Assembly: GCA_937920495.1 (NCBI GenBank)
Contig: CALEUQ010000039.1
Coordinates: forward strand, 8,802-72,801
Source: an uncultured bacterium
Lineage (GTDB): Bacteria > Spirochaetota > UBA4802 > UB4802
Length of the DNA stretch: 64,000 nucleotides
Direction: 5' to 3'
In this document: piece by piece, positions 1-22,510 of the stretch
How positions within the stretch are numbered: position 1 is the stretch's first letter
Layout of the letters: each line of letters opens with the position of its first letter
Translations under genes and position numbers: made by a program
The notes under the pieces: generated by a model
What the model saw: only the letters and a program-made list of their open reading frames with translations
Databases searched by the model: none
What the model was told of the DNA's origin: nothing

Positions 1-2536
1 AAAATAGCGATTTGGTTAAAAGCTTTTTTACAAATTTTTGATATAGGCCCAGCGTGTTATCTTTTTCAATAATAGGAATAATACCATCGCGCATTTCTTC
101 TAACCTGTATACAAGAGAATTGGAAAGCCGTTCTTTTATGCTTTTATCTTTAAATAATGAGAAGATATTGTTAAAGTTATCCCATACGGGATCATCCCAG
201 CGGGCCGCAAAATATCGCGAACCGCCCGAGCGCTTTTTCAATTCAATGGCACAGGCATTTCTGTTACAACTTGCCTTTGCCTCATTATCCAGAAGACCGT
301 GCGCTCGTGCAATCATTTCGGATAAGCTTTCCTTATGATGGCAAATGAGAATAGCAGCCGATATTGAAATCTTTTCACCCTTCCCCAGCTGAATTGCCAT
401 TTTCCCCACCTGAGGCGTAAACTTTTCTGATAAAGGAAAAACTTTTCCTTTATCATCCACAAATACAAACGGCTGGCAATAGACGTTCTGTATTTCTCTT
501 GCGGAATTCAATGCATTAAACGCTGGAAGTATTGCACAGATATCATCGCCACCAGCATATATGAGCCTTCCACGATACCGCTCAATAATTTCTTTTACAC
601 TGAAAAGTGAAAAATCACCCAGCGCCTCAGAAATTGCAGCATGAACTGCAGGAGAAAGCATCCTCTTTTTCAAAGATTGGCTTTTAAAAATATCTTCCCA
701 CTCTTTTGTATACACATCTGCAAGGGTTTTATTTTTTAGCTTATCTACAATTTCCGGATGTATCACAGTTTCCCACGTTGATGCCACGCTCTCACCATTG
801 ATGAGCGATCCCATATTGTCGCCATCCATTAAAAGTATGGCATAATACTTATCCTCTTCATACATCTTTATTTTTGTATGCACAACTTTCGCAATCTGCT
901 TTTCAAACTCATCATTTTCATGTAAATTCTGCGCTATTTCCCATTTATCATTTTTATTTTCAATATTGTATCTTTTAAAAAAATTATCAAGAGCTATTTC
1001 TGTTGTGGAGGGAAATGCGTCGGCATTGGCAAAGATATGTGATAATATATGTGAGTTTCCTTTTAGAACGATTGCAGCAAGCCTTTTCACCACACATACC
1101 GCACAAAGTTTTTCTCCCTCAGTAAAATCAAATTTCCCATACCCCTGTTTCACCTTTTCCCAGAATGCCTGTATATGCTTTGTGTATGTTGAAGCTTTCA
1201 CATCTTCAGGATATTCAACAGTATGAAGGACTTCAAACTCGCCGCATAAGTGGCACTTTTCACCATTTTCAGGAAGTCTATGAATGGTTCGCCTGCTCTT
1301 AGCAGATGCAAGCGCACTCTGCACAAGCCGATGCGTTACATTATAAAAACACCCCTGAAATGAACTGGAGGACAATTTTGCAAACTTTTGCGCCAGTTCC
1401 CAGGAAGCTTTATATACTTCTTCTTCAAAATAGTTTTTTAGGGAGTCAATATCCCTTTCCCCGATCATACCCGCACAGGCATAATTAATATCCCAGAAAA
1501 AACCTGTTTGACGTTTAAACATTTTTTCAATTGCATTTTTTTCTTTATCATTAATTGAACATTTTTTAACTATTGAAGAACATATCTGCAAAGAAAGCTC
1601 ATTCCATTTTGAAAGTATTGTTTCTTTTATTTTTTCACAAAAATCCTTAGCTTCAGAATAGGGAAGTAAAAACAAAAATTTATTTGGAAACGTGGCTATT
1701 TCGGATGGCTTTGGCAAACACGATTCCTGAATGAGCGCATCAAAGCCCGCAATACGTTTGAGATACATTTCAACCAGTGGCTGGTCAAGCAATGAAGGGT
1801 ACAATACATGATCAGGGCCAAGGTTCTCTGTCACATACCTGATGCCTTCAAATGCCAGCCATGACAGCAAAATCGATGAGGTCCAGTAATCCCGCAATTT
1901 GCGCGCTTTTGCAATAAAACCCTGCACAGGAGTTATGCTAAATACCGCAAGCGCTACTCCTTCCTGGGCTTTTGCAAGCTCCATGGAGCTATACAGCGCA
2001 GAAACAAGTGCATTGTGATGCCATATCGAGTGATCAGGCATGCGAGTATCAGCGGGTAATCTATGCCACAGCCCACCAAGTCCTGAGATATTTTTTGATG
2101 CAAGCCTGTACCGCAGCAAAAAATATAAGTAATAGAATCGATTGCGCACCCGTTCTATTTCATTGCCGCCATCAATTATTGTTATATCGTTTTCAATTAG
2201 TCCTTTAATTTCTTCGTAATTAATATCTTTAACATCTACATCTATTCCTATTCTGCTATTTGACGATACCGGATGGGTTGTTACTGGATTTTGTAAAAAA
2301 TTAACTGCGCCGCTTGTCTTTTCATCAGCTTGATACCCGGGCAACACCGCGCGTTCAAAACCAGCGGCCAACACATCTGCCGTTTTCCAGAATTTTTCCT
2401 GGCAGCTTTCCACTCCCAGCGCTTTGAGGTATTCAACTGCCCGCCCTTCATGTCCTGGTATTTTAAGCGCTTTATCAAAAGGATCGTGCAAAAAAGCTGC
2501 AATTTTATTATTCCAGTATGAAGTGTCTAAATTCAC
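1..2536 (-). CDS. cas10: Type III CRISPR-Cas Cas10/Cmr2 large subunit. It is 3'-partial because its C-terminus runs off the window start.
   Basis: The minus-strand reading frame is continuous from a GTG at 2536 (GGAGGA SD at 2542-2547) to position 1, about 845 codons. It is absent from the ORF track because it has no in-window stop. The translation shows an N-terminal HD motif (AAFLHDPFDK), a treble-clef zinc finger (CHLCGEF...CAVCVV) and a palm GGDD motif (LIYAGGDDICAI), in the canonical Cas10 domain order. Confidence 0.8.
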   Translation of the reverse strand, partial: MNLDTSYWNNKIAAFLHDPFDKALKIPGHEGRAVEYLKALGVESCQEKFWKTADVLAAGFERAVLPGYQADEKTSGAVNFLQNPVTTHPVSSNSRIGIDVDVKDINYEEIKGLIENDITIIDGGNEIERVRNRFYYLYFLLRYRLASKNISGLGGLWHRLPADTRMPDHSIWHHNALVSALYSSMELAKAQEGVALAVFSITPVQGFIAKARKLRDYWTSSILLSWLAFEGIRYVTENLGPDHVLYPSLLDQPLVEMYLKRIAGFDALIQESCLPKPSEIATFPNKFLFLLPYSEAKDFCEKIKETILSKWNELSLQICSSIVKKCSINDKEKNAIEKMFKRQTGFFWDINYACAGMIGERDIDSLKNYFEEEVYKASWELAQKFAKLSSSSFQGCFYNVTHRLVQSALASAKSRRTIHRLPENGEKCHLCGEFEVLHTVEYPEDVKASTYTKHIQAFWEKVKQGYGKFDFTEGEKLCAVCVVKRLAAIVLKGNSHILSHIFANADAFPSTTEIALDNFFKRYNIENKNDKWEIAQNLHENDEFEKQIAKVVHTKIKMYEEDKYYAILLMDGDNMGSLINGESVASTWETVIHPEIVDKLKNKTLADVYTKEWEDIFKSQSLKKRMLSPAVHAAISEALGDFSLFSVKEIIERYRGRLIYAGGDDICAILPAFNALNSAREIQNVYCQPFVFVDDKGKVFPLSEKFTPQVGKMAIQLGKGEKISISAAILICHHKESLSEMIARAHGLLDNEAKASCNRNACAIELKKRSGGSRYFAARWDDPVWDNFNNIFSLFKDKSIKERLSNSLVYRLEEMRDGIIPIIEKDNTLGLYQKFVKKLLTKSLF

Positions 2537-2574
2537 GTATTCCTCCTTTCCTTCTATGGATACGTTGAATCAAG

Positions 2575-3573
2575 TTAATAAATTGTTTTTATATCTTGAC
2601 CGGAGTGAATCTTTTTTAGAACGCCGGACATTTTTTGAGTAACGTTTGCATACTCGCCATTATCAGCAAGGGGCCCCTGATATTTATATGGCAGTACTAA
2701 AATCTTTCCCTGATATTTTCCCTCTTCTGTCTTGTTTACATGCAAAAAGCATGTTTTGGCGTGCCTCCCGTCTTTTACTTCCTCTTCTTTTGCCTGGACA
2801 ATTGGTAGGGCAATATATTTTCTATTGCCGTAATCATGTTTATTAATTGCTATCTCCTGTGATAATCGCATGGTGCGGTATGCTATGCCAATCTCAGAAA
2901 GCGCATCTTCCCATTTTTCATGCACCTTGAAAGCAAATAACTGCGATTTCTTAGAAAACGAGGTATATTTTGCTTCATCGGTTGCTATTTTTTTATGAAA
3001 TTCAATTATCGGAACATCTTTTGAATATACAGATCCAAAGCCATTTCGGCTCTTTGCTCCCATTCCACCATAATGGATGAGTGCGCTCAAGGCTTTTTCC
3101 ACTTCATCTTTTACAGCTTCTGACGTGTACATACAGTGTAGTATAAACGTGCTGCCGGGTGCGATATGCTTTCTGGACCAATTATGATTAGATGGGTCGT
3201 AGATTCCCAATCCTAAATAGGTAAAAATATCTATGTTGAAATTCTTGTTTTGCCTGACTACCTCAACCTTTTTCCCCTCTGCAATTTTATCCTTAATTTC
3301 TATTTTCTTTGTTTCTATGAACATTGAGAAAGGTGACTTTGATAGTGAATCATTCATGGCAGAGCCAAATACTGCCGATTCCTGTTTTTTTAGTTCATCC
3401 AGATTATGTATTGGATGTATTGCTCGCCACCAGAAACGAAGCAATCCTTTTATTGAGGCAGCTCTAAGTTCAGGCCTGGATATATCCGCACCCGACATGA
3501 ACAACGGAGTGACAACCTCGATTTCATAACTTTTTTTTATCCTGTAATTATATTTACCAATGTAGAACGCCAT
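2575..3573 (-). CDS. cmr1: Type III-B RAMP protein, Cmr1-like (Cas7 superfamily). It is the first gene of the cmr operon.
   Basis: This 332-aa protein starts MAFYIGKYNYRIK...VVTPLFMSGAD...ELRAASIKGLLRFWWRA, the typical RAMP N-terminal signature. It lies immediately upstream of cas10 on the same strand and is preceded by a 970-bp gene-free region. Confidence 0.6.
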   Translation of the reverse strand: MAFYIGKYNYRIKKSYEIEVVTPLFMSGADISRPELRAASIKGLLRFWWRAIHPIHNLDELKKQESAVFGSAMNDSLSKSPFSMFIETKKIEIKDKIAEGKKVEVVRQNKNFNIDIFTYLGLGIYDPSNHNWSRKHIAPGSTFILHCMYTSEAVKDEVEKALSALIHYGGMGAKSRNGFGSVYSKDVPIIEFHKKIATDEAKYTSFSKKSQLFAFKVHEKWEDALSEIGIAYRTMRLSQEIAINKHDYGNRKYIALPIVQAKEEEVKDGRHAKTCFLHVNKTEEGKYQGKILVLPYKYQGPLADNGEYANVTQKMSGVLKKIHSGQDIKTIY

Positions 3574-4542
3574 TGTTCCCCCTAAATATTAATAAAAGTT
3601 TATTAATATCTAAAATAAACTGACATCCATTACATGAAGTACGATCTTTTTCAAGGCAGGTTTGCAACTTTAGCGTCCAGCCAAATACACCACGCAAGGC
3701 TATATCTGGAAAGTTGAAAAACCGTATAGGCTTGGTTGCGTGTAAAAGTATTTTAAATTTATATAATAGTAAGGTAGCTTTTTGTGATAATATCATTCAA
3801 ACTCCTTGTCTATTACAAAAACTAACAAATGATGTCATACATAAAAACAAAAGTCAAACACTTTTCATTTTTACAAATTCTATCAACTATACTTTTCATA
3901 TCAATAACAGTACAAATTAACCTAATTATATTCACTATTTAATTTAATTTTAATTGTTATATGATAATCGTCCCTATTCCATTTCAGGCAATGACTGCAT
4001 GCAGGGCAGCCTGAACAATCATAAAAAATGGGACTCTTCTGATCTAACAACCCACCTACTTTTACTATATGAGACCCTGTTCATACACATATACACTTTG
4101 TATAATGCAACCTCTGTTTTTACATTTTGTTTTGTTCGATAGTTACAGGCTATAAAACATCATTTTCTTAGCTATCCATATATATTAATGACAGTGATAA
4201 CCACAGTTTTATAGGAGTACTTTGCTTTTTATTTTTACCCGATTATACATACAATAGATAGAAAATCACTTAAATAGACGGTGAATGCAGGTGTTATGGA
4301 TTCATAAAATTATACCAGGTATGGTATAAAGAATTGTACTTCCAATCTACCACCGATTACGGTGTAAACCTTTCACATTGTGATTCACCTGTCATACACC
4401 TGAATCGTCACGCAAAGCGATTATTATTGTACAGCATGGCTTTTAGGTTACAGCAGGATACACACCTTTTACATAAACACAATTTTAATCATCATTAATA
4501 TTTCTACTTGACACCACCCATAACCTACTTTTTCCATAAACT

Positions 4543-6126
4543 ATGGAGCAACTTCATCATCTTATTACTCAATTAAATTCAAAACCTAAAGAAGAGCGTA
4601 ATAACTTTTACCGTGACGCTATATTACCAATTATAAGTGATTTGCTGCATCAGCAATATCAACAATATCTACAATCAAACAATTACAATTCATATTTAAC
4701 TCTCATCACAACGCTTTCACATGATATCAATATCTTACTGCTTTTACTGTACAGCATTAAGCCCAAATACCTTGTGGTATTTTATACCAGCGATAAAAAC
4801 AAGTTGATTGAAAAACTATACCCCCTAACTCAATCACTACAACTCAACATAGAAACAATACAGCTTGATAGTACCAATCACAACAATAACAATAGTAAAA
4901 TAAAGGATACAATCAAACGTTACAAAAAAAACTATCATCCTGTGCTATGCGACATCACAGGTGGCAAAAAGATTTTTTCAACACAAATTGGTATACTGGC
5001 GCATTCATTAAAAACCGACATTGCATACATTGATTCATCAAAAGGTTTTTTACAGTGGGGCATACCTCTGCCCGGCACTGAAATATTATACATTCAAAAA
5101 CCTGATAACATCTTCAATTTGCTTGAAATATATCATGCCAATAAATTGCGAATACGCTTTAACAGCATCTCTTCAAATATAGAGTATGAAGCCGATGTTA
5201 ATGGAAGGTTGTACAGGTTAGGCCAGAAAAAACTAAAACCAGAGGAAATCGATAAACTGGTAGATTATGTAAACCGCTTTTACATGGATATCAATGCTTC
5301 TATCATCAATAATTCATATTCCACAATTAACATGGGGAAATATGCTCTGTCATTTAAAACCCTTCTTTTTACAAAAGAGCTCAATCATTTCGTTTCAATA
5401 CACAACAATTTAACTCATTTAGTCATAGATAATGAATTGAGTGCGTTTCCGTGGGAATTTATCTTTGCTCACTGCAACGTAAGTTTACCACTGTTTCGTA
5501 TTCCCAATCGTGATAGTAATTTCATTGAAAATAATAAATGTAATAATCAAAAAAGCATTGCATTCATCACAGGTTATGGTGAAAATCTCCCGGATTTTGC
5601 AACCACAGTACATAATATTAAATTGCTGTTATCAAAAGAAAAACAATTTTCACTGGCTACTATCACCGCAAAAAACTCATTTGAATTAAAAAAATTTTTT
5701 GCCGAATATAGTTCCAATCCCTTTACAGTGGTTATATTTTTTGGCCATGCAGCATTTGGTAACTGCAGTGAAAACACAGGCTTGATATGCCAGGATGGAA
5801 GTATTTTTTCTATTGAAGATTGTGATGTGCTAAGCGGCTCCCCACCTGAATGCATACTCATTAATTCCTGTCAATCAGCTCGCTGCAGTTTGTTTACACC
5901 CAATTCTTTTGCTCATGCTGTTATAAATTCGGGAGTTGAAACCTATATTGGGACCCATTTTTTTTTAGAATATAAACGAAGTATTTGTTTTTTACAATCA
6001 TTTCTTAAAGCTATTGCATGCAACCACACTTATGCAGATGCGTATAAATATAGCATCGATAGCATTACTCAACAATTTGGCAAAAATGATATAAGTACAT
6101 ATAATTATGTATACTACGGATATTAA
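4543..6126 (+). CDS. Fusion of a CARF-domain sensor to a caspase/CHAT-like cysteine peptidase. It is a candidate cyclic-oligoadenylate-activated protease.
   Basis: This 527-aa protein has, at residues about 75-260, a beta1 strand ending in polar residues (LVVFYTSD) and the strand-4 [DN]x[ST]xxx[RK] CARF signature (DITGGKK). Its C-terminal 190 aa has a caspase-fold pattern: KSIAFITGYG, then a His in VVIFFGHAAFG, then a Cys in ECILINSCQSA, followed by a CHAT-like tail (NSGVETYIGTHFFLEYK). There is no SD before the only possible ATG, so the mRNA may be leaderless. The gene is adjacent to cmr1. Confidence 0.6.
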   Translation: MEQLHHLITQLNSKPKEERNNFYRDAILPIISDLLHQQYQQYLQSNNYNSYLTLITTLSHDINILLLLLYSIKPKYLVVFYTSDKNKLIEKLYPLTQSLQLNIETIQLDSTNHNNNNSKIKDTIKRYKKNYHPVLCDITGGKKIFSTQIGILAHSLKTDIAYIDSSKGFLQWGIPLPGTEILYIQKPDNIFNLLEIYHANKLRIRFNSISSNIEYEADVNGRLYRLGQKKLKPEEIDKLVDYVNRFYMDINASIINNSYSTINMGKYALSFKTLLFTKELNHFVSIHNNLTHLVIDNELSAFPWEFIFAHCNVSLPLFRIPNRDSNFIENNKCNNQKSIAFITGYGENLPDFATTVHNIKLLLSKEKQFSLATITAKNSFELKKFFAEYSSNPFTVVIFFGHAAFGNCSENTGLICQDGSIFSIEDCDVLSGSPPECILINSCQSARCSLFTPNSFAHAVINSGVETYIGTHFFLEYKRSICFLQSFLKAIACNHTYADAYKYSIDSITQQFGKNDISTYNYVYYGY

Positions 6127-6139
6127 TTGATTGCTAACA

Positions 6140-8182
6140 TTAAAATGGAAACAAATACCATAAAGTATTCCATTTGATAACAGGTGTATCTTTATACTTT
6201 TCTTGCACCTTTACTAAATAGTCATACAATGTTGTACCTAAACTTTGTTGTAACACTTTGTGCCATATTTTTTTTATTTCTTCCTGCAAGCTTTTTAATG
6301 AAGCACTATCTTTAAGCGATAAAAGCCAGATATAGTCAGCTCTTATTGATAATTCTTTTGTCAGGATTGTAACATTTTCATTTTTCATGCATAACTCACG
6401 TGCATGATTATAGAAGTCATTTGCTTGCTTTATGGATGAGTTTGAACCATATAGACCATACAAAACCATTACATAATGATATATAGAATGAACAGGATAG
6501 GTTGACACTTTTACCATTGATTCAACATTTGCTTTATACTTATTAAAACACGTAGTTACTATCTCATAATACTTTTTAACATTTTTTGAATAATCGTTCA
6601 TTAGCTCTACGTAGTATATACGCAAAAAATGCAATAATGGAAATAATAATGATCTTTTTAAGATATCTTCCAGCAATTGCATATCATTGTGATATTCAAC
6701 ACCACACCCTTTTGCTAGATTTCGTCTTGCTTCTTCAAAGTTTTTTGTATACGTTTCAATTTGTGCACAGTACTGATACTGACGCATGATGTCTTCAGAT
6801 TGAACAAAGCTTTGTAGTGCTTTTTTAGAAATGTCCCTCACTTCTTCCCAGCTGCCCCCGTGTATTAAAGTGTGATACATCTTTGCTTGCAATTTTGTTC
6901 CAATAATTTCACCAAGTATGCGTGGTTGCACAACTATATTCTCATCGCTTTCACTTAGAAAACTAAATGCCTCGCTTACTTTTTTTTCAAGATTGTGCAT
7001 TTCATTGAAAGACCATTCAAATGCATACATATTGGTAAGATGCACACCATAGAGTACCTTGATACGTAACCGCGCACTTAAATAATCTAAATCAAATGGA
7101 ATTGATTTGATAAATGAGTATGCCTGTCTGTATACATCTTCAAATGTATGTACATCACCTTTATGGTTATATAAAGTAAGCAGGATCATATAACAGTAGG
7201 TATATATCCAGTGAATGTCTTCTTTACGTTTACCATAATCAGGAAGTTTTTCTTCTAAACGTGGCAAAATGTTTTCTATTATAAATAATATATCACTGTC
7301 CAAATCTTTTAAAATTCTATCTTCATTTATTGCATTATAATAAAGAGCAAGCAAAGATGAAAATATACTGTTAATATAAAAGATATTTAGTTTACATAAC
7401 TGCTCTAAAACATCAGGTAGGATTTTTTTTACCGCATTATCCTTTAAAGCGTTGTCGATTAAATTCTTTAACGCATACTCATACAGATTATCATTCATCA
7501 AATTATTAATCTTTTCAGTAATGGTTGGTGAAGCATGAATATATATTTTATGTTGTTCTATCCATATATTGAATTTTTCTACTACTTTTTGATCATACCT
7601 ATCATTACCATTTATATGCGTATCTAATCTATAAAACGTATGAACAATTGCATCAGCTAATTGTAAAAAATAATTTTTTTTACTTTCCACCTCTACCTTG
7701 GTTTTTATGTTTCTATTAGGTAATGGTGATAATACTATGGCCTTTGTAACTAATTCGTTTATTCTTTCTTTATATTCTTCTTCTTTTATTCCTACTCTAT
7801 GTTCGATAGTAACCGTTAATTCACTAATATCCTGGAATAATTTTGATTTTTTTTTAATAAATGCAAAAATTCCCTCAGCCAGCACATGCAGGTAAGTTTT
7901 AGTATCATTTATAACATAAAAACCACGCTGAGGGATAAAGATTATCGGAATAATATCATTTTGTTTACAAAAATCTATCAAATTATCTATTACAGCCAAT
8001 AAAGTTGAATTTGATAATTCGTTACCATGAAAAATTTCAGATTCTAAATTAAATTGTCTAAAAAAATTTGCTACATCGTTACTTGTTAAAATTTTGTCTT
8101 TAATAAAAAAACCACCAACAATACTACGTTTTTGTTTATAACCCTGAAATTTTCCACTTTCATCAAGGTACAAATAAGCCAT
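6140..8182 (-). CDS. DUF3800-domain protein with a large C-terminal alpha-helical (TPR-like) domain. It is the last gene of the sigma/anti-sigma operon.
   Basis: This 680-aa protein has an N-terminus MAYLYLDESGKF... and a later QLADAIVHTFYR, matching the DUF3800 (yiDESG...QlAD) signature. About 480 helical residues follow. It begins 15 nt after the anti-sigma stop, with GATGGA upstream. Confidence 0.5.
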   Translation of the reverse strand: MAYLYLDESGKFQGYKQKRSIVGGFFIKDKILTSNDVANFFRQFNLESEIFHGNELSNSTLLAVIDNLIDFCKQNDIIPIIFIPQRGFYVINDTKTYLHVLAEGIFAFIKKKSKLFQDISELTVTIEHRVGIKEEEYKERINELVTKAIVLSPLPNRNIKTKVEVESKKNYFLQLADAIVHTFYRLDTHINGNDRYDQKVVEKFNIWIEQHKIYIHASPTITEKINNLMNDNLYEYALKNLIDNALKDNAVKKILPDVLEQLCKLNIFYINSIFSSLLALYYNAINEDRILKDLDSDILFIIENILPRLEEKLPDYGKRKEDIHWIYTYCYMILLTLYNHKGDVHTFEDVYRQAYSFIKSIPFDLDYLSARLRIKVLYGVHLTNMYAFEWSFNEMHNLEKKVSEAFSFLSESDENIVVQPRILGEIIGTKLQAKMYHTLIHGGSWEEVRDISKKALQSFVQSEDIMRQYQYCAQIETYTKNFEEARRNLAKGCGVEYHNDMQLLEDILKRSLLFPLLHFLRIYYVELMNDYSKNVKKYYEIVTTCFNKYKANVESMVKVSTYPVHSIYHYVMVLYGLYGSNSSIKQANDFYNHARELCMKNENVTILTKELSIRADYIWLLSLKDSASLKSLQEEIKKIWHKVLQQSLGTTLYDYLVKVQEKYKDTPVIKWNTLWYLFPF

Positions 8183-8197
8183 AACGCAGTGTCCATC

Positions 8198-8749
8198 TTA
8201 TTTTGTTATATTAATTTTAATAATCTTTTTAAAATCAAATAGCAGCACTATATTACCTGGCTCAACTGACGAAAATTGCGCTGTATTGTTAGTAATAGTT
8301 GCTATATCAAATCTACTTCCAGTAAGCAGATGTATTTTTATACCATTTACGGGACTGTATATCACCACATCAATTGCTTTGTTATTATATATAATTTTAA
8401 CTTTAATTATTTTGTCATTATAAGGATACTCTATTTCTACTACCGGAAGTTTTTCATTTTCTAACACATATACTTGAGATTGCACTACATATTTTGAACA
8501 TACCTGAGGAATGAAAATATTATCTTGATATTTAATATCCAATATGAATGTGTCATCATCAATATTAAATTCATCTTCCATTGTTAAGAAATAATCTTCA
8601 TAAAGCTGTCTACATTGTGTGCATTCATTTAAATGATGAAACACTTTATCAATTGTTTTTTCATCAGTAATTGTACCATCAGCAACGCCCAATACCATAT
8701 CCTGCAAATCATCATTGCAATTAGATGAGTATATATGTAACTGCGTCAT
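8198..8749 (-). CDS. Zinc-binding anti-sigma factor (ZAS family, HxxxCxxC).
   Basis: This 183-aa protein has an N-terminal HHLNECTQCRQLYEDY, which is the H-x3-C-x2-C ZAS motif. Its start ATG overlaps the sigma-factor TGA stop (ATGA), indicating translational coupling. The C-terminal ~120 aa is beta-rich. Confidence 0.6.
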   Translation of the reverse strand: MTQLHIYSSNCNDDLQDMVLGVADGTITDEKTIDKVFHHLNECTQCRQLYEDYFLTMEDEFNIDDDTFILDIKYQDNIFIPQVCSKYVVQSQVYVLENEKLPVVEIEYPYNDKIIKVKIIYNNKAIDVVIYSPVNGIKIHLLTGSRFDIATITNNTAQFSSVEPGNIVLLFDFKKIIKINITK

Positions 8750-9378
8750 GACAGTATCTCCTCTTCAACTTCAGGATATTTCTTCTTAACTGCAGATAAA
8801 ATACGTTTTTTGATTTTTTCTATGCGTTCATATACGGAGGGTTGGGAAAGTTTTATCATTTGGGCAACTTCTGCTTGCGTTTTTTTATACAAAAAATACC
8901 ATGTGTAAATTAATTTATCTTTTTCATCAAACGTATCCAGTGTATTTTTAATAATATTTAAAATATCATTTTTCACAATTTCATCTGTAAAATCTATTGA
9001 TACCGGATGGAACAAATCAAAGATGCTAATATTGTCATCATCCTGCTCTTCTGATTGATTGCTGTCAATATCAACTTGTCTAATAAATTTGTTTTTTTTA
9101 TTAACATAACTAATTACACTATTACGTATTATCTTGAACAGGTAAGTTTTAAATTTACTTTTTCCCTTGTAATTGGCAATACCATTCAGAAAAAGTTTAA
9201 AACATACATTCTGGAAAATGTCTTCAATATCATCTTCATTAAGATTGTAATTTTTTACATAATTAATTTTTTTTATAGTACGTTTTATAAAGTCTAAATG
9301 TTCAATGAGCAATTGTTGTGGCGTTTTATCATCCATTATTATAAATACCATCTCAATTGGTAATATTTCATTACTCAT
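8746..9378 (-). CDS. ECF-type RNA polymerase sigma factor (sigma-70 family, regions 2 and 4).
   Basis: Region 2 is DDIEDIFQNVCFKLFLNGIANYKGKSKFKTYLFKIIRNSVISYV. Region 4 HTH is KLIYTWYFLYKKTQAEVAQMIKLSQPSVYERIEKIKKRI. The start is ambiguous: the ORF track starts at 9438, M21 is at 9378 and M35 is at 9336. Confidence 0.75.
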   Translation of the reverse strand: MSNEILPIEMVFIIMDDKTPQQLLIEHLDFIKRTIKKINYVKNYNLNEDDIEDIFQNVCFKLFLNGIANYKGKSKFKTYLFKIIRNSVISYVNKKNKFIRQVDIDSNQSEEQDDDNISIFDLFHPVSIDFTDEIVKNDILNIIKNTLDTFDEKDKLIYTWYFLYKKTQAEVAQMIKLSQPSVYERIEKIKKRILSAVKKKYPEVEEEILS

Positions 9379-9603
9379 TCTTTTATATTTACTGATGTTG
9401 TCAATAATAAAATATTTCAATATATATTTTAAATACATATACTGTACGTGACATTACCATATTACGCTAAACCTTACACGCTTTGTATTAATTAGACTGG
9501 ATTACATTGATAATTATTGTAAAATTTTGTGGATTGGTTTTTTTATTTTTTTGAATACATATACCAGGCAAGTGAAATGTCATAGTAAATTTGAATGATC
9601 TAA

Positions 9604-11664
9604 TTAATGCACCGTATTCTTCATTCTGTACGCATCACGGTCAAACTTCTCATAAATTTTTTTCTTTATAAAAAGCTCTACAATATCCTTATCCAGTTTA
9701 TTCTTATCTGCCTCTTCTTTTATTATACTCAGTGCTTGCTCTAATGTAATGGGCGGTTTATAGGGCCTGTCGGTAGCAATTAAGGCATCAAATATATCAG
9801 CAAGCGCCATGATACGTGCCTGCAGTGGTATCTGCTCACCTTTTAGTCCGTAGGGATAACCGGTGCCATCAAGCTTTTCGTGATGCTTTGCGGCAATCTC
9901 AGGAATGCGTGCAAACTCTGGCGGCCATGGGATCTTGCTTACAAAGTTATACGTATGCACCACATGGCTTTCTATTTCACGACGTTCATCATCGTTCAAG
10001 CTTCCGCGCTTTATGCTTAAATTTTTGATATAGTAATCATTGAATATTTCCAATGCATTATTTTCCACATCACAGCATTCAAGCGACTGCAACAAGGCTT
10101 GCAAATTTTTTACCTCTTTTTCAACATCCATTTCTCTTACCATTGGGTTGTTGAGCTCTATGACTTTCTGGCGCGCCTGAAGTATTGTATGCAACACATT
10201 ATCGCGTTCAGATTCAATAGCGGTAACGTGTTCAAGGCGTGCATCAAATTCAGCTTCTTTTTTGATTTCATTATATACTGCCATAGCATACTTCAACTGC
10301 TGATACCGGTACAGATATTCAAGCTTAAGCAAAATATTTTCAAGATCCTTTGGATACAATTTATGTGATTTTAAAAAGATTGCAGTGTCAATATACACCT
10401 TACCAAAGTCATGCAAAAGTGCCGCATATTCAAGCTCTTTTAATTCGGTTTCAGAAAACGTTGTTGTAGCAAATGGTCCTGATGTGTCCTCACCAATTGC
10501 CTGCGCAATCTTTAAGCACATATCAGCAACCCTGAATGAGTGGCCCGACGTGGCAACATCACGTGATTCAATGGCAGTTACCGATGCCCTGACAAATTCT
10601 TCAAACTGTTTTTGAATCTGACGTATCATGCGGTTATTTTCTATGGCGATAGCCGCCTGCGAGGCCACCGCTTCCATCAAACTTTCGTATCGTTTCTGAA
10701 ATGGCACTACTTTTGTATTAAAATCTTCTTCACACGTTAATTTAATTGAATACGCTTCATTGCCATCATACGCATTTTCAATATCTTCCTTGCTGTTAAT
10801 AAGCTGTATGACACCAATCGTTTTATTTACATGATTAATCATGGGTACTACAAGCATTGATTTTGAGCGATAGTTATGCGCCTTATCAAATGACGAATTA
10901 AATGCCACCGGATCATCAGGACCTAATTTATATACATCGGGTATATTGAGCACCTGCTGGGTTACTGCAACATACCCTGCTATTGAATTTTTATCCATTG
11001 GTATGGTGAACTCTTCATACGGCAGATCCTTTGAAAAGGTGTGCGAGTGCTTAAACCGTAAGAATTTATTCCCGTTTTTTTCTTCAACCAGATATATACT
11101 ACCTGCATCAGCACCGGTAATGGTCTTGCTTAAATGCAAAATTAATTTCAATAACCGGTCGGGATTTTTTTCAATTGATAGCGCTTTGCCTATATTAATT
11201 AACGCATCAAAATCTCTCTGAGTATCTGCAAGCTGATGTATATGCTGACGGCTTAACTTTTTAAACTCGCCATGCGAGTGGGCAATAAATTTTGCTTTGG
11301 ATATTATAAATTTAAACTCTACTTCACTGATTCCATTTCTATACAAAGCAATGACATCCTGCATCATGGTTGTAGTATATTTAGAGCCAACACATACAAA
11401 GCCCACATAAAGATTATTATTGTGTGCTTCAATATTGCGCACTATTGATTTTACTTCATCATAGTGATGCGATGGTATAATATATACCACAGCAGTACAA
11501 CTTCCAGGATCAGCATTAATTGCATGCAGTATTGCGGGCAGTTCATTATATGGAGTGTAAACGTAGTGAATATCTGCGCCACTTTCTTTAGGCAGGGCAA
11601 CAGCATCTTTCAACATACTATCTATAATAATACAGCACTGTAGTTTTAATGAGTCCACCAACAC
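9604..11664 (-). CDS. GAF-domain / HD-GYP-domain cyclic-di-GMP phosphodiesterase.
   Basis: This 686-aa protein has a GAF-like central region and a C-terminal HD-GYP signature (ALLHDFGK ... [14 protein letters not shown]). Confidence 0.8.
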
Positions 11665-11735
11665 ACTCTTAACATATATACTAATCTTAACTCACAATCC
11701 ATAAAATAAATAAAAAGTCAATGTAAAAAAAATAT

Positions 11736-13154
11736 TCATATTTCTATTTCCTGAGAAATAGTATGCAATTCTTCCTGATCGGGAGCTTGGGCAGGTTTGT
11801 GTACTTTGTCATCAAATTTCAAGAATGCTTCTGCCTCATCTGCTGTTACGGTTTGGGTTATAATCTCTTCTTCAGCAATTTCTTTTTTTGTTTCTGCCAT
11901 TTCCTCTTTAACAACCGTTGTTTCTTTTTGTGATGTTTCTTTCTTCTCTTCTTTTTCTTCTTCACCTTCAATGATAGCCATGTGGTCGCGGGATTTAAAA
12001 TATTTGGCTTTGGCAGTAAGCTGGCTGGGTTTTTCAATTATTGTTTCGCCAACGTTAAACTGCAAATTTGAATCCGACAAAAGCAGATTTGTTGTTTTTT
12101 CCATTCTGGACGCAACATATCCCAGCATCCTGAAAAGCTCATCAATACCAAAGTTAAGCGTAACCGGGTCATTGCTCTTTAATGAAACACCTTTCTCAAC
12201 AAGTTTATTTTCAAGCAGGGCATAAATCCGTGTAATTGGCTTGTCGTATAGCTGTGACTCAAGTTGTATATAGGTAAACCAAATGCGGTGCGATAGTTCC
12301 TTGAAAATAAGCTGCGTTATGGCAGGCATCTGTTCCATAACTGCAGTAAGCGATTCTTTCTTTATAGGAAGTAGTACAGTTTTGCCCCAGCTTATTGCAG
12401 CAGCATTACGCGGCTTTTCCGATATTAACGCCATCTCCCCAAACACATCGCCATCTTTTAATACAGAAAGTATTATCTCGCTTTCGCTGGATAATTTAAC
12501 AATTTTTACCCTGCCCTCTTTGATAATGTACATCTCATTTCCGGGCTCATCCTCGCAGAAGATCATCTGCTGGTCTGCATACACTTTATACGGTGCCTGG
12601 ATTACCGGAGCTATCGCCCCCTTTACCTTATCTTTAATGCTTTCCAACATTGTGGTAACTACACTGGCAAAAAGCCCCTGTGGGTACAGCTCCAGATAGC
12701 GCTTGCAGCAGTAATACGCATGGTTGTTGCTTCCATTATTATAAAAGTACCTGATGTGATTATACAGTGCTTCTTCAGGTGTTTCAAGCTCCACGCCTTT
12801 ATCCTTCAAGGCTATCATCATCTCATTATATGCTCTAAGCTCATTAGAAAAATAGTTTAACACCTTAATAGCTATCTGAGGCTTTTTTGATAAAAGATTC
12901 ATAAACTCCTGTTTGGTAAGTGATGTTATGACAGTATCCACACGTGCTATGGCAGATTCCATGCGTGGCTTATTGCATAGTGCCGCAATCACGCCAAAGA
13001 ATTCACCATCTTTCAGTATATTTTTATATATGGGAGCGTTCTTATTATAGCGATCTAACTGCACAACACCTTTATCAACGATGTACACAGTGTCCGCGTC
13101 TTCATCACCTTCTATATATATGTATGCTCCCTTTTTAAAAAGGCTCTTTTTCAT
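11736..13154 (-). CDS. Protein with tandem cyclic-nucleotide-binding (cNMP/CAP-effector) domains and an acidic/lysine-rich C-terminal tail.
   Basis: Two cNMP-binding signatures are present: YIYIEGDEDADTVYIVDKGVV...GEFFGVIAAL, and MYIIKEGRVKIVKL...GDVFGEMALISEKPRNAAAISW. The C-terminus is EEKEEKKE-rich. Confidence 0.75.
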   Translation of the reverse strand: MKKSLFKKGAYIYIEGDEDADTVYIVDKGVVQLDRYNKNAPIYKNILKDGEFFGVIAALCNKPRMESAIARVDTVITSLTKQEFMNLLSKKPQIAIKVLNYFSNELRAYNEMMIALKDKGVELETPEEALYNHIRYFYNNGSNNHAYYCCKRYLELYPQGLFASVVTTMLESIKDKVKGAIAPVIQAPYKVYADQQMIFCEDEPGNEMYIIKEGRVKIVKLSSESEIILSVLKDGDVFGEMALISEKPRNAAAISWGKTVLLPIKKESLTAVMEQMPAITQLIFKELSHRIWFTYIQLESQLYDKPITRIYALLENKLVEKGVSLKSNDPVTLNFGIDELFRMLGYVASRMEKTTNLLLSDSNLQFNVGETIIEKPSQLTAKAKYFKSRDHMAIIEGEEEKEEKKETSQKETTVVKEEMAETKKEIAEEEIITQTVTADEAEAFLKFDDKVHKPAQAPDQEELHTISQEIEI

Positions 13155-13160
13155 ACAATC

Positions 13161-13709
13161 CTACATCCAGTACACCTGCATGGTATTTTTTAATGTAGTC
13201 TGAATTTCTTTGCCGGCAAAAAGCCCCACCAGAGTCAGCGCAAATGGTAGTGCACATCCCGGGCCCTTTGCAGTGACAATTGTGCCATCAACCACAACAG
13301 GTTCATTCACAATAGTTGCACCGGTAAGTTCATGCTCAAAGCCAGGAAAACATGTTGCTTTTTTGCCATACAAAATTTCAGCAGCACCCAGCACAATAGG
13401 TGCAGCACATATAGCAGCAACATACCCACCTTTTGAAAAAATATGTTTAATGAATTTGTGCACATCATCATTGTTTTTTAAATTTTCACTACCAGGCATT
13501 CCACCCGGTAATACTATACAATTATAATCGACAGGATTGCATTTATGCAATAGTGTATCCGCCTTAATTGCAATTCCATGCGAGCCGGTTACAAGAGTGT
13601 CAGAAAGCGCCGCAGATTGTACATCCAGATTTGCTCTTCGCAGAACATCAATTATTGTTATAGCTTCTATCTCCTCAAATCCCGGAGCAAGCGGTACAAT
13701 TATTTTCAT
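13161..13709 (-). CDS. DJ-1/PfpI (ThiJ) family protein.
   Basis: This 182-aa protein shows MKIIVPLAPGFEEIEA...DYNCIVLPGG...AAICAAP, with the nucleophile-elbow Cys of the family. Confidence 0.8.
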   Translation of the reverse strand: MKIIVPLAPGFEEIEAITIIDVLRRANLDVQSAALSDTLVTGSHGIAIKADTLLHKCNPVDYNCIVLPGGMPGSENLKNNDDVHKFIKHIFSKGGYVAAICAAPIVLGAAEILYGKKATCFPGFEHELTGATIVNEPVVVDGTIVTAKGPGCALPFALTLVGLFAGKEIQTTLKNTMQVYWM

Positions 13710-13965
13710 CCTGTTCCTCCTTTTAAATAAAATTTAATCCCTTAACCTGACCCCAACCCATCTCCTTAAACAAGGAGAGGGGTTCTGAATTTCCCTCGCC
13801 TTTTCTAAGGAGAGTGTTTAAAGGTGAGGTTCCAATATAATTAAACTACATTGGATGAATCTTCTATAATTAAAGGCTATACTACTGGCCTCACAGTGCC
13901 ATTCCACCAACTTAATATAATGTACTATATGCTCGCAATAAGTCAATACAACAAGCTATCGTCCA

Positions 13966-14496
13966 TTACGTGCTTTTAAGCCATTCAATAAGGATGGTCT
14001 GTACCTTATGTGTGATTTGATGTAAATTATTTTTTTCTTCTGTGGTAAAATCTGACAACACATAATCTGCAACCGGAGTACCATCTATGGGTCTGCCAAC
14101 GCCTATCTGTATACGGTAAAAGTCAGGGGTACCAATATGTTGCTGTATAGAGCGGATGCCGTTATGCCCTTTGTGACCTCCGCCAAACTTAAGCTTTACA
14201 TGCCCAAACTGTAGTTCTATCTCATCATGCAACACAATAAGATTTTGAGGATTTTCTTTGTAATACGATAGCACCTTTTGTACGGCAATACCGCTGTTAT
14301 TCATATAGGTTTGTGGCATTACAAACAGGCACTCGTACCCATCAATAGTACCGATTCCCATAATAGCATCATGTTCTTTTTTGTGTATCGTGATTGTATA
14401 TCTGCGAGCAATTTCCGCGCCAATAATCATGCCTGCGTTGTGGCGGTTGCCCGCGTATTTTTTTCCGGGATTTCCTAAACAGGCTATTATTTTCAT
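13966..14496 (-). CDS. pth: Peptidyl-tRNA hydrolase.
   Basis: The sequence MKIIACLGNPGKKYAGNRHNAGM...FVMPQTYMNNSG...HDEIELQFG is a canonical Pth. The start is chosen at M8 of the track ORF. Its ATG overlaps the stop of the upstream STAS gene (ATGA). Confidence 0.85.
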   Translation of the reverse strand: MKIIACLGNPGKKYAGNRHNAGMIIGAEIARRYTITIHKKEHDAIMGIGTIDGYECLFVMPQTYMNNSGIAVQKVLSYYKENPQNLIVLHDEIELQFGHVKLKFGGGHKGHNGIRSIQQHIGTPDFYRIQIGVGRPIDGTPVADYVLSDFTTEEKNNLHQITHKVQTILIEWLKST

Positions 14497-14840
14497 TGTG
14501 CGGATATGTATAAGCAAGCTTCTTCGATAGTATTTTTAATTATCAGATGTTTATCAAGCTCAGTTAATTTAAATAATTTTATTATGTCCTCACTGCATCC
14601 GGTTATGACCACTTTTAATTTCTTTGCTTCAGCCTTTTTATGTGATGCAATAAGCAGACTCAAACCTGCACTGCATATAAAAGATAATTCATTGAAATCG
14701 ATAATGATGTTGTTCATTTTTTCAAGTGCAGTATATATCTCTTTTTCTAACTGTTTAATATGTTCAGTTACAAGCGACCCTTCAATCTTTATTATAACAA
14801 TACCATCTATACTTTTTCTGGTAATTTTCATTGCACCCAC
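14493..14840 (-). CDS. STAS-domain protein (anti-sigma-factor antagonist, SpoIIAA-like).
   Basis: This 115-aa protein shows ITRKSIDGIVIIKIEGSLV...IIDFNELSFICSAGLSLL, which is the STAS fold signature. Confidence 0.7.
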   Translation of the reverse strand: MGAMKITRKSIDGIVIIKIEGSLVTEHIKQLEKEIYTALEKMNNIIIDFNELSFICSAGLSLLIASHKKAEAKKLKVVITGCSEDIIKLFKLTELDKHLIIKNTIEEACLYISAQ

Positions 14841-21184: not shown

Positions 21185-22144
21185 ATGGCTCTGACCCCAA
21201 CACCCGTACGAACATTACAACATTACCTGGAAGAAGCCATCTTTGTGGGACAGGCCCACCGGCTTGGCGTGTTTAAAGAACTTTATACAAAGCCAGATAC
21301 ATCAGATGGCCTTGCAAAAAGAATGCAATTTGACACACGCGCAACATGGATACTTTTAGAAGCGCTTGTTGAATTGGGATACCTTGAAAAAAATAATGAA
21401 ATCTATAGTCCCACAGAATATTGCACACATCATTTAATTGACGAAAAAAACGATGAATACGAGGGTAACTTTTTACAGTTCTTACTGTATCTCATCAACC
21501 CGTGGCGCACATTGCCTCATGTACTAAGTACCGGAAGTCCTGATGAATCCAGCTTTAAGGAATTATCCATGCATGATTTTATCAAAGGTATGGATTCCCC
21601 CTGGAAAAAGAAATTAGCGCCTGAAATAGTTGACCTGTGTATTGCACATTGCTCTGACCCCACAACCTGCATTGACATAGGTGGTGCCCCCGGAACAATT
21701 GCCAGAGAATTTGTGCGCAGGGGAATTAAAACAATAGTATTTGATCTGCCTCAATCACTAGCAATAACTCAAGATGAGTTGACAACCATCCCCAATATAG
21801 AAGTAATAGCAGGCGATGCAACAGTTGCATTACCGGATCGCAAGGTTGATATAGCATTTTTAGGAAATCTGTGCCATGGGCAAGGGCCTGAAGATAATCA
21901 GAAAATAATAACCATGTGCTATGATAGCCTTAATAAGAATGGTATCATAGCTATATTTGATAACTTACGAAACGAAAGTTATTTAGGTGCAACGCTTGCT
22001 CTTCACATGTTAACCCAAAGCAAAAAGGGCAATATCTATTCACGCCAGGAATATTTTGGATGGCTGGGCAATGCCGGCTTTAAAACACCTAAAGTATACC
22101 AGCTATCCGATAGGGCATGGCAGCTTATTATTGCAAAAAAATAA
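21185..22144 (+). CDS. SAM-dependent O-methyltransferase (Methyltransf_2-like, with an N-terminal dimerisation/wHTH domain).
   Basis: The protein shows CIDIGGAPGTIAREF...IKTIVFDLPQ, with an N-terminal wHTH-like region. Confidence 0.7.
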   Translation: MALTPTPVRTLQHYLEEAIFVGQAHRLGVFKELYTKPDTSDGLAKRMQFDTRATWILLEALVELGYLEKNNEIYSPTEYCTHHLIDEKNDEYEGNFLQFLLYLINPWRTLPHVLSTGSPDESSFKELSMHDFIKGMDSPWKKKLAPEIVDLCIAHCSDPTTCIDIGGAPGTIAREFVRRGIKTIVFDLPQSLAITQDELTTIPNIEVIAGDATVALPDRKVDIAFLGNLCHGQGPEDNQKIITMCYDSLNKNGIIAIFDNLRNESYLGATLALHMLTQSKKGNIYSRQEYFGWLGNAGFKTPKVYQLSDRAWQLIIAKK

Positions 22145-22510
22145 AGAGGGGTACATAAGCCGGATTCTGTTTTGACAGCCATCAATCTTGCATGCATGTT
22201 GCCATGCATGTCTATGCGGCCTACCCGCAACCTTGAGCGGGCAACTCTGATAACGGTTGCCTATTTGGCCTTGCACCGGATGGGGTTTGCACTGCCACCT
22301 GCATTACTGCAGATGCGGTGAGCTCTTACCTCGCCTTTTCACCCTTACCCCACTATGGGGCGGTATATTTTCTGCTGCACTTTCCGTCGCCTTACAGCGC
22401 CCGGGCGTTACCCGGCATCCTGCCCTGTGGTGTCCGGACTTTCCTCACAACAATGCACACACCACACTGTGTATGTACATTGTGCGCATGCCGTCTGTAC
22501 CCCTCTTACT
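22142..22510 (-). ncRNA. rnpB: RNase P RNA (bacterial type A), M1 RNA.
   Basis: The minus-strand read gives AAGAGGGGTACAGACGG...GTGAGGAAAGTCCGGACACCACAGGGCAGGATGCCGGGTAACGCCCGGGCGCTG...GGTAAGGGTGAAAAGGCGAGGTAAGAGCTCACCGC...GTGCAAGGCCAAATAGG...GCGGGTAGGCCGC...ACAGAATCCGGCTTATGTACCCCTCTT. This matches the E. coli P4, P10-12, P15 and P18 consensus blocks. The P1 5' and 3' ends are complementary and followed by a U-tract. The track ORFs 22257-22603 on + lie inside it and are spurious. Confidence 0.85.

Follow-up and report, generated by a model that had tools for sequence, protein, structure and literature searches.

We have analyzed a window of 64,000 nucleotides (the whole stretch of DNA examined here, positions 8,802 to 72,801 of contig CALEUQ010000039.1 in assembly GCA_937920495.1) from an uncultured bacterium of the Spirochaetota. 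Close to its start, next to type III CRISPR genes, the window carries an operon coding for a sigma factor of the extracytoplasmic function (ECF) type, a soluble zinc-binding anti-sigma (ZAS) factor and a protein with DUF3800 and TPR-like domains, and facing this operon a gene for a protease in which a CARF domain is fused to a CHAT domain. We propose that the four genes make up an accessory module that would turn the cyclic oligoadenylate (cOA) alarm of type III systems into transcription. The genes, and the predicted promoter of the operon, are the following:

4543-6126, plus strand: CARF-CHAT protease, 527 amino acids (aa), with a CARF domain, a middle domain and a CHAT domain
6140-8182, minus strand: DUF3800 and TPR-like gene, 680 aa, third of the sigma operon (PF12686)
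8198-8749, minus strand: soluble zinc (CHCC/ZAS) anti-sigma factor, 183 aa, assigned from motif, gene order and weak family matches
8746-9438, minus strand: ECF-type sigma factor, longest open reading frame (ORF) 230 aa (TIGR02937, Sigma70_r2)
9490-9523, minus strand: predicted autoregulatory ECF-type promoter, TTTACAATAA-N15-AGTCTAATT

Genes of the island

The segment 8198-9438 consists of two minus-strand ORFs, the sigma and anti-sigma genes, which overlap as ATGA at 8746-8749, exactly as described in an earlier reading of the DNA made from the letters alone (the sequence-only reading). The same reading had the operon of this pair ending 14 bp from the CARF-CHAT gene. The anti-sigma stop codon is at 8198, about 2.07 kb away from that gene, and the DUF3800-TPR gene at 6140-8182 had been overlooked. 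This third gene begins 15 nt past the anti-sigma stop, and a gap of 13 nt separates its own stop from that of CHAT (6126), so that convergence with the protease gene holds for a three-gene operon and not for a pair. The GC content is 26-34% across 3500-9500 and 36-42% in the flanks, and the low-GC island includes the sigma/anti-sigma pair. Predictions of sigma-70 promoters between 3500 and 9700 were no commoner than in shuffled sequences, and no intrinsic terminators were found in the same region.

The sigma ORF matched the sigma-70 model TIGR02937 with 86.3 bits (cutoff 42.9) and Sigma70_r2 with an E value of 8e-10. Both sigma regions 2 and 4 had been called clear beforehand; the sigma-70/ECF identity and region 2 are borne out, and region 4 remains subthreshold (19.3 bits, Pfam cutoff 24.1). 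The true start is probably Met35 (MDDKTP), at about 9336, because homologues begin at the equivalent residue, and this would give a protein of about 196 aa. The closest named subfamily was NF041236 (CASP-sigma, the sigma factor of type III-E systems), with a score of 42.2 bits that falls below the cutoff of 100, and membership in that family was rejected on this basis. A sequence search of the PDB with the sigma factor gave no match at E<=1e-3.

The protein coded by the downstream ORF carries a tetrad of putative zinc ligands, Cys11 and H39-x3-C43-x2-C46 (HLNECTQC), spaced like the ligands of RsrA. When 47 members of the family were aligned, all four residues were invariant or almost so. The H-x3-C-x2-C motif had been noticed before and is indeed present, not at the beginning of the ORF as stated then, but at residues 38-46. 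The only direct family match was a weak one to the RsrA model TIGR03988 (E=0.005, 16.8 bits, cutoff 62.5); Pfam zf-HC2 (PF13490) gave none at E<=0.1, and the relatives P0048 and P0063 had weak or faint precomputed matches to it. In the AlphaFold2 (AF2) model (pLDDT 75) the zinc ligands are carried by helices 13-24, 30-42 and 44-59, forming a three-helix domain (13-59), which is followed by an acidic linker modelled as disordered (58-64), beta hairpins (67-90), a loop at 92-99 (QVYVLEN) predicted as disordered (pLDDT <50) and an Ig/FN3-like sandwich at the C-terminus (103-182). Compared with solved structures, the 183-aa protein showed similarity to generic folds only. Within the loop Leu96, found in the context x-V/M-L-(S/A/G/D), is kept in at least 90% of the 47 family members; leaving aside the zinc site and two residues in the core of the C-terminal sandwich, no position is more conserved. 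A segment that is conserved yet unstructured is what would be expected of a scissile site or a docking motif, and the loop is a candidate for either role. The coupling of the two genes through the ATGA overlap suggests that the anti-sigma factor binds and inhibits its cognate sigma factor.

Facing the operon is the CARF-CHAT gene, and here the sequence-only reading, which had recognised a fusion of both domains, was right. The C-terminus is a caspase-like CHAT domain (PF12770, 33.2 bits, cutoff 24) with a His402/Cys443 dyad, separated by a middle domain from the CARF part at about residues 35-205. The latter matched PADLOC CARF1 over 35-203 (1.6e-18), Csx1 models (down to 8e-12) and, in the PDB, the CARF domain of Can2 (7bdv, 4.9e-4). 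These matches place the protein in the CARF superfamily, and binding of cOA is predicted. The only match to anything related to Lon proteases was to the CARF portion of a CARF_LON model. A CDITGGKK motif, His402 (GH402A) and Cys443 (C443QSA) are invariant across 14 homologues. The family is small, with 14 clusters among 5.8 billion proteins. A literature search for "CARF-CHAT" returned no paper, and an earlier listing of the fusion, for example in the 2020 census of CARF proteins, is possible; the 2025 CRISPR classification includes caspase and Lon proteases among the cOA effectors, with no CARF-caspase family named in its tables.

The 680-aa product of the third gene of the operon has an N-terminal DUF3800 domain (PF12686, 31.7 bits, cutoff 21) in which the motif D7-E8-S9-G10 and D177 are invariant (D7, E8 and D177 across 17 sequences). 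Its AF2 model (pLDDT 88) combines an alpha/beta domain with a TPR-like solenoid. Against the PDB it matched generic TPR proteins only, and the possibility of a Csx30 homologue was rejected, the matches being restricted to the TPR solenoid. We consider this protein a likely sigma-dependent effector and putative nuclease with an RNase H-like fold, and alternatively a candidate substrate or partner of the protease. At Cas12a2 and type VI-F loci, DUF3800 proteins with an RNase H fold and TPRs have been described as accessories (PMC10910872, PMC12669027). Within the closer CARF-CHAT clade the gene was found at 23 loci, and about half of the CARF-CHAT lineages do not have it. Remote homologues, with 21-33% identity, were detected in Desulfofarcimen acetoxidans (Dtox_2970; L053, 8001-10175) and in L055 (2111-4282), in both cases adjoining Csm6-like genes, with no CHAT or sigma gene nearby, and the former sits within a Cmr (type III-B) locus. 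Since these homologues occur in type III contexts without CHAT, DUF3800-TPR proteins appear to be type III accessories in their own right.

Conservation of the gene trio and of a candidate promoter

By scanning genome and metagenome collections we found 42 loci (loci are designated here by L numbers), about 33 of them with full-length relatives of the CARF-CHAT protein (27-52% identity), all from Spirochaetota. The proteins of the window were searched against all ORFs of these loci, which were clustered to 25 lineages (<90% identity). The co-occurrence across genomes that the sequence-only reading had proposed to look for is there: both the sigma factor and the ZAS anti-sigma factor were found near CARF-CHAT in 18 of the 25 lineages. 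Five further lineages (L003, L021, L023, L030 and L010) are represented by contigs too short to show whether the pair is present, and in L005, where the contig has no pair, one is found on another contig of the same single-cell assembly (L056). The trio persists in at least five gene orders:

Order 1: convergent and separated by the DUF3800-TPR gene, as in the window
Order 2: convergent and directly adjacent (L057)
Order 3: divergent
Order 4: co-directional and overlapping, sigma, anti-sigma, CHAT (L011)
Order 5: 3-5 kb apart

The association is also apparent when starting from the other partner. When 1.84 billion representative proteins were searched with a profile, 38 relatives of the anti-sigma factor came up, about 34 of them full-length and with the zinc motif. 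Out of seven genomic contexts sampled, six included a CHAT gene belonging to this family; the remaining one is from an assembly in which another contig has such a gene. The pair is thus not widespread without the protease, which is the situation in which, according to the sequence-only reading, its position here would be a coincidence.

One locus, L058, is different in the sensor. There, a 1284-aa Ser/Thr-kinase-TPR protein (2695-6549, minus strand) ends in a CHAT domain of this family (profile E=2e-86), and its gene is divergent from genes for a sigma factor (7148-8020) and a ZAS anti-sigma factor (8001-8591), with the same promoter motif described below. Since the kinase-TPR part, a sensor unrelated to CRISPR, takes here the place of CARF, the conserved unit seems to be CHAT, anti-sigma and sigma, with an exchangeable sensor. 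The module adjoins Cmr genes in the window and in L034, Csm genes in L048 and, often, cas1-cas2.

In 11 lineages the sigma gene is preceded by a conserved motif, TTyCC(G/A)ATA, 16-17 nt and GTC(T/A)A, and the window copy at 9490-9523 (minus strand) is the sole strict match to its regular expression in the 64 kb. For a looser expression we estimated, assuming equal base frequencies, about 18 chance matches in the 1.4 Mb scanned, and for this reason we used a position weight matrix (PWM), built from the sites of the 11 training lineages, together with shuffle controls. At a score of at least 18 there were 21 unique sites in the 1.4 Mb versus 2 per shuffle. In three loci outside the training set (L056, L058 and L060) the top match was located directly upstream of the sigma gene, and three control loci without this sigma factor had no match of 14 or more. 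Within the window, and at that same score of 14, the site upstream of the sigma gene was the only intergenic match, the other two being inside the DUF3800-TPR gene and Cas10. One of these, at 7006-7038 (minus strand, score 19.0), lies in the DUF3800-TPR coding region and is probably a chance match, although it could be an internal promoter. No ECF-type motif was found upstream of the CARF-CHAT gene of the window. Given that the only intergenic copy precedes the sigma gene, the predicted local output is the operon of the sigma factor, the anti-sigma factor and the DUF3800-TPR protein.

In the relatives, intergenic copies of the motif precede a wider set of genes. They were detected before the c5-CARF-CHAT operon (L019-21, L049), before cas6-csm (L048), before the gene of a subtilase (L032, L001), before an operon of peptidase-MA-like and DUF4230 genes (L034; in L013 this operon immediately precedes the sigma gene, in the same orientation) and before clusters of small ORFs (L005, L056, L060), which in L005 code for hydrophobic products.

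Some genes are recurrent neighbours of CARF-CHAT. The conserved c5 gene (133-141 aa, no Pfam match) immediately precedes CARF-CHAT in L044 (5755-6180) and in 13 further loci, and a copy of the sigma-type promoter motif stands 31 nt before it; gene and motif are both absent upstream of the window CARF-CHAT. A Peptidase_S8 subtilase with an N-terminal prodomain (about 450 aa) and a partner of 121 aa adjoin CARF-CHAT in seven loci (L002, at 3944-5731, and also L001, L020, L021, L024, L025 and L032), and the subtilase may act as a second protease layer. A Dna2/Cas4-like nuclease-helicase of about 1146 aa (PADLOC MkoA 4e-63, Mokosh-like) was found in L044 (2171-5611) and 11 other loci, placed between cas1-cas2 and CARF-CHAT or directly after CHAT.

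On the CRISPR side of the island the window carries the following genes:

1-2536, minus strand: cas10/cmr2, with an open frame that runs past the window start and an intact cyclase motif GGDD (YAGGDDICAILP)
2575-3573, minus strand: cmr1, a type III-B RAMP protein (TIGR01894 2.1e-19, PF03787 4e-20)
3554-3796, minus strand: 5' stub of cas6, about the first 60 codons only (AF_1859_N Pfam tag)

The source contig (L043) codes for an 885-aa protein with Cmr2_N and Cas10 palm2 domains, followed by Cmr3-6 and Csx1, plus a Cas_APE2256 gene, and the cas10/cmr2 gene truncated in the window is presumed to be the source of the cOA. The cas6 stub overlaps the cmr1 start by 20 nt and shares 66% identity with residues 5-60 of the Cas6 from L048, which is intact (309 aa); in that locus cas6-csm1-csm2 occupies the equivalent position. 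It seems that a Cmr (III-B) cassette took the place of a Csm-type one while the accessory module was retained. The segment 3797-4542 is non-coding, and no repeat family indicative of a CRISPR array was found in 1-4600. On the other side (9604-14517, minus strand) there are genes for a GAF-HD protein (HD-GYP-like), a tandem cNMP-binding protein, DJ-1/PfpI and peptidyl-tRNA hydrolase. This flank is syntenic in the related genomes L001, L044, L048, L049 and L052, indicating that the island occupies a fixed chromosomal site with a variable CRISPR side. Farther away, a housekeeping class A bacterial RNase P RNA (22141-22506, minus strand, 301 bits) confirms the chromosomal context.

Comparison with known protease and sigma factor systems

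The module resembles CalpL-CalpT-CalpS in having a fusion of cOA sensor and protease, a soluble anti-sigma factor with an extra C-terminal domain, an adjacent ECF-type sigma factor and a type III context. The parts are nevertheless different. CalpL combines a SAVED sensor with a Lon protease (Ser/Lys), whereas here CARF is combined with CHAT (Cys/His), and the window module adds the DUF3800-TPR gene. CalpT is made of MazF-like and DUF2080 domains, and it is cut in a poorly structured region, after which the remnant is degraded; the anti-sigma factor of the window is a CHCC zinc three-helix bundle followed by an Ig-like sandwich and matched none of CalpT, Csx30 and Csx31 in sequence or fold. 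The description of the pair as CalpT/CalpS-like, proposed in the sequence-only reading, does not hold as a statement of homology.

In Craspase (III-E Cas7-11 with the TPR-CHAT protein Csx29, Csx30, Csx31 and CASP-sigma) a CHAT protease also controls an ECF sigma factor, by cutting a loop of an inhibitor. The CASP-sigma motifs are found before cas1 and a membrane-protein gene of its own locus, targets within the local defence locus like those predicted for the sigma factor of the window. Craspase is activated by contact with the RNA-bound effector, while the protease described here would be gated by cOA through its CARF domain. Besides, the window has a multi-subunit Cmr1-6 system and no homologue of Cas7-11, Csx30 or Csx31, and the TPRs, which in Craspase are part of the protease (Csx29), are located on the separate DUF3800 protein. 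The SAVED-CHAT/PCaspase/PCc-sigma system of Haliangium (III-B) shares the cOA-activated CHAT protease and a sigma factor downstream. It differs in its SAVED sensor (cyclic tri-adenylate, cA3, with filaments), in the cascade of two proteases, in that the sigma factor itself is cleaved, and in having no ZAS anti-sigma factor. The second caspase of this cascade is not present in the window, although some relatives carry the subtilase. With a sensor, a protease or mode of activation and an anti-sigma factor that are all distinct, the module does not belong to the CalpL, Craspase or SAVED-CHAT systems, although it seems to follow the same logic.

Among known systems, DdvA of Myxococcus comes closest to linking zinc anti-sigma and CHAT domains: in this protein a CHCC zinc three-helix anti-sigma domain is joined to CHAT, and its partner, the ECF sigma factor DdvS, controls a defence island. 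However, DdvA is a single transmembrane protein with a periplasmic, incompletely catalytic TPR-CHAT part that receives an extracytoplasmic signal, while the proteins of the window are separate and cytoplasmic, with a CARF input. As for the third gene of the operon, the TPR-DUF3800 proteins of Cas12a2 (V-A2) and VI-F loci are similar in architecture and in their association with CRISPR, but they are tied to class 2 effectors, whereas the gene of the window is the last of a sigma operon beside a type III system.

Proposed mechanism and alternative explanations

We consider that the four genes are a type III accessory module converting the cOA alarm into transcription, a proposal to which we give a probability of about 0.6. 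A Cas10 with an intact GGDD motif makes cOA when target RNA is bound, and the Cas10 of the Cmr complex in the window would do the same. The ligand is probably cyclic tetra-adenylate (cA4), because the CARF domain is Csx1/Can2-like and a Csx1 is co-resident; effectors for different cOA species seldom co-occur. Binding of cOA to the CARF domain would switch on the caspase-like His402/Cys443 protease, and this would cut the soluble CHCC-zinc anti-sigma factor, a substrate suggested by the co-occurrence, most likely near Val95-Leu96 of the loop or else within the acidic linker 58-64. The leftover fragment might then be degraded by housekeeping proteases, as for CalpT, Csx30 and RseA. The freed sigma factor would direct RNA polymerase to TTyCC(G/A)ATA-N16-17-GTC(T/A)A promoters, including the one of its own operon, with positive feedback and induction of the likely DUF3800-TPR effector as a consequence. 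In the relatives it would also transcribe further defence genes. The role of the pair as the output arm of CARF-CHAT, already put forward in the sequence-only reading, is thus backed by the genomic association, and what falls away from that version is the direct adjacency together with the homology to CalpT/CalpS.

We regard as tentative a broader version, in which the CHAT/anti-sigma/ECF-sigma cassette would have an exchangeable input (CARF or Ser/Thr-kinase-TPR) and a local defence regulon with a recognisable promoter. The DUF3800-TPR nuclease would belong to this regulon, as would, in relatives, the operon of the protease, cas6-csm, the pro-subtilase and the small hydrophobic proteins.

Some observations weigh against the proposed module. 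Co-occurrence cannot tell which protein is cleaved, and models of single chains cannot address docking. The identification of the anti-sigma factor comes from a motif, a helix pattern, the gene order and weak family matches. In L006 the sigma factor is partnered with a membrane protein that is not of the ZAS type. The promoter motif does not have the AAC typical of ECF -35 elements, it is its position and conservation that point to a dependence on this sigma factor, and the PWM threshold lets some chance matches through, such as the intragenic one mentioned above. Finally, L005 has a DUF3800-type gene, divergent in sequence (706 aa, with an N-terminal LDESG recognised by eye), directly upstream of CARF-CHAT on a contig without the pair, which hints at a direct link with the protease.

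This would fit the most probable of the alternatives, in which the DUF3800-TPR protein, as a latent nuclease or toxin that cleavage sets free or activates, in the manner of Csx30 or of pro-nucleases activated by proteases, would be the main substrate or partner of CARF-CHAT and the sigma pair would merely set the level of expression. The tight linkage on both sides of the gene and its presence in 23 loci of the closer clade are in line with this, as are the independent type III associations of its remote homologues; TPR solenoids typically act as scaffolds for substrates or for protease docking, and nuclease-protease pairs recur among defence systems (PMC12799240). However, the lineages without the gene (those with divergent, co-directional and distant orders) keep the pair, the remote homologues have no CHAT gene nearby, and the model of the 680-aa protein is compact and of high confidence, and shows no conserved loop that would be obviously exposed. 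We find this explanation unlikely, and it is in any case compatible with the anti-sigma factor being cut.

Less probable again is that the pair works as an input arm, with the anti-sigma factor sensing redox or other stress as RsrA does, or being released in some other way, and the sigma factor switching on the island with no cleavage by CHAT. The RsrA-like tetrad spacing and the weak match to the RsrA model would fit this idea, as would the motif copies before c5-CARF-CHAT and cas6-csm in relatives, and there is a precedent in DdvS/DdvA, where the sigma factor controls an island with CBASS and type III-B. Nevertheless, the association is specific to CHAT rather than to CRISPR genes in general, it survives the replacement of CARF by kinase-TPR and it is tightened by the overlap of the genes in L011. 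A pure redox switch would need neither the extra conserved Ig-like domain nor the conserved disordered loop, and in DdvA itself the proposed trigger is the proteolysis of the anti-sigma by CHAT. Feedback on the expression of CHAT is also compatible with the module as we propose it. As for a chance placement of an ordinary ECF pair beside a defence island, such pairs are very common in bacteria and the GAF-HD and cNMP flank genes are housekeeping-like, but this pair is a tiny family that travels with CHAT through rearrangements and different chromosomal contexts, the low-GC island takes it in, and the co-occurrence in both directions effectively excludes this explanation.

Three CRISPR pathways leading from a protease to a sigma factor are known, and the module described here would add a fourth, made of other components: the sensor is CARF and not SAVED or TPR, the protease is caspase-like and not Lon, and the anti-sigma domain is of the classical zinc type. 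To our knowledge, the regulon is not well defined in the native host for any of the three. One more protease-sigma arm will not surprise specialists; what is new are the parts, the exchangeable sensor, the link with DUF3800-TPR and a promoter with a candidate regulon. The computed motif and its candidate targets make the output of the sigma factor directly testable. It also puts the DUF3800-TPR accessories known from Cas12a2 and type VI-F loci in a functional setting for the first time. A cOA-gated and sequence-specific caspase-like protease with a small defined substrate, as predicted here, could serve as a molecular tool. The logic of protease, anti-sigma and sigma factor appears to have been assembled repeatedly, and the kinase-TPR variant suggests that the cassette is a general signalling device of bacteria. 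If the broader version of the proposal is true, type III CRISPR would trigger here, beyond the immediate collateral RNase activity, a staged transcriptional second line of defence with positive feedback.

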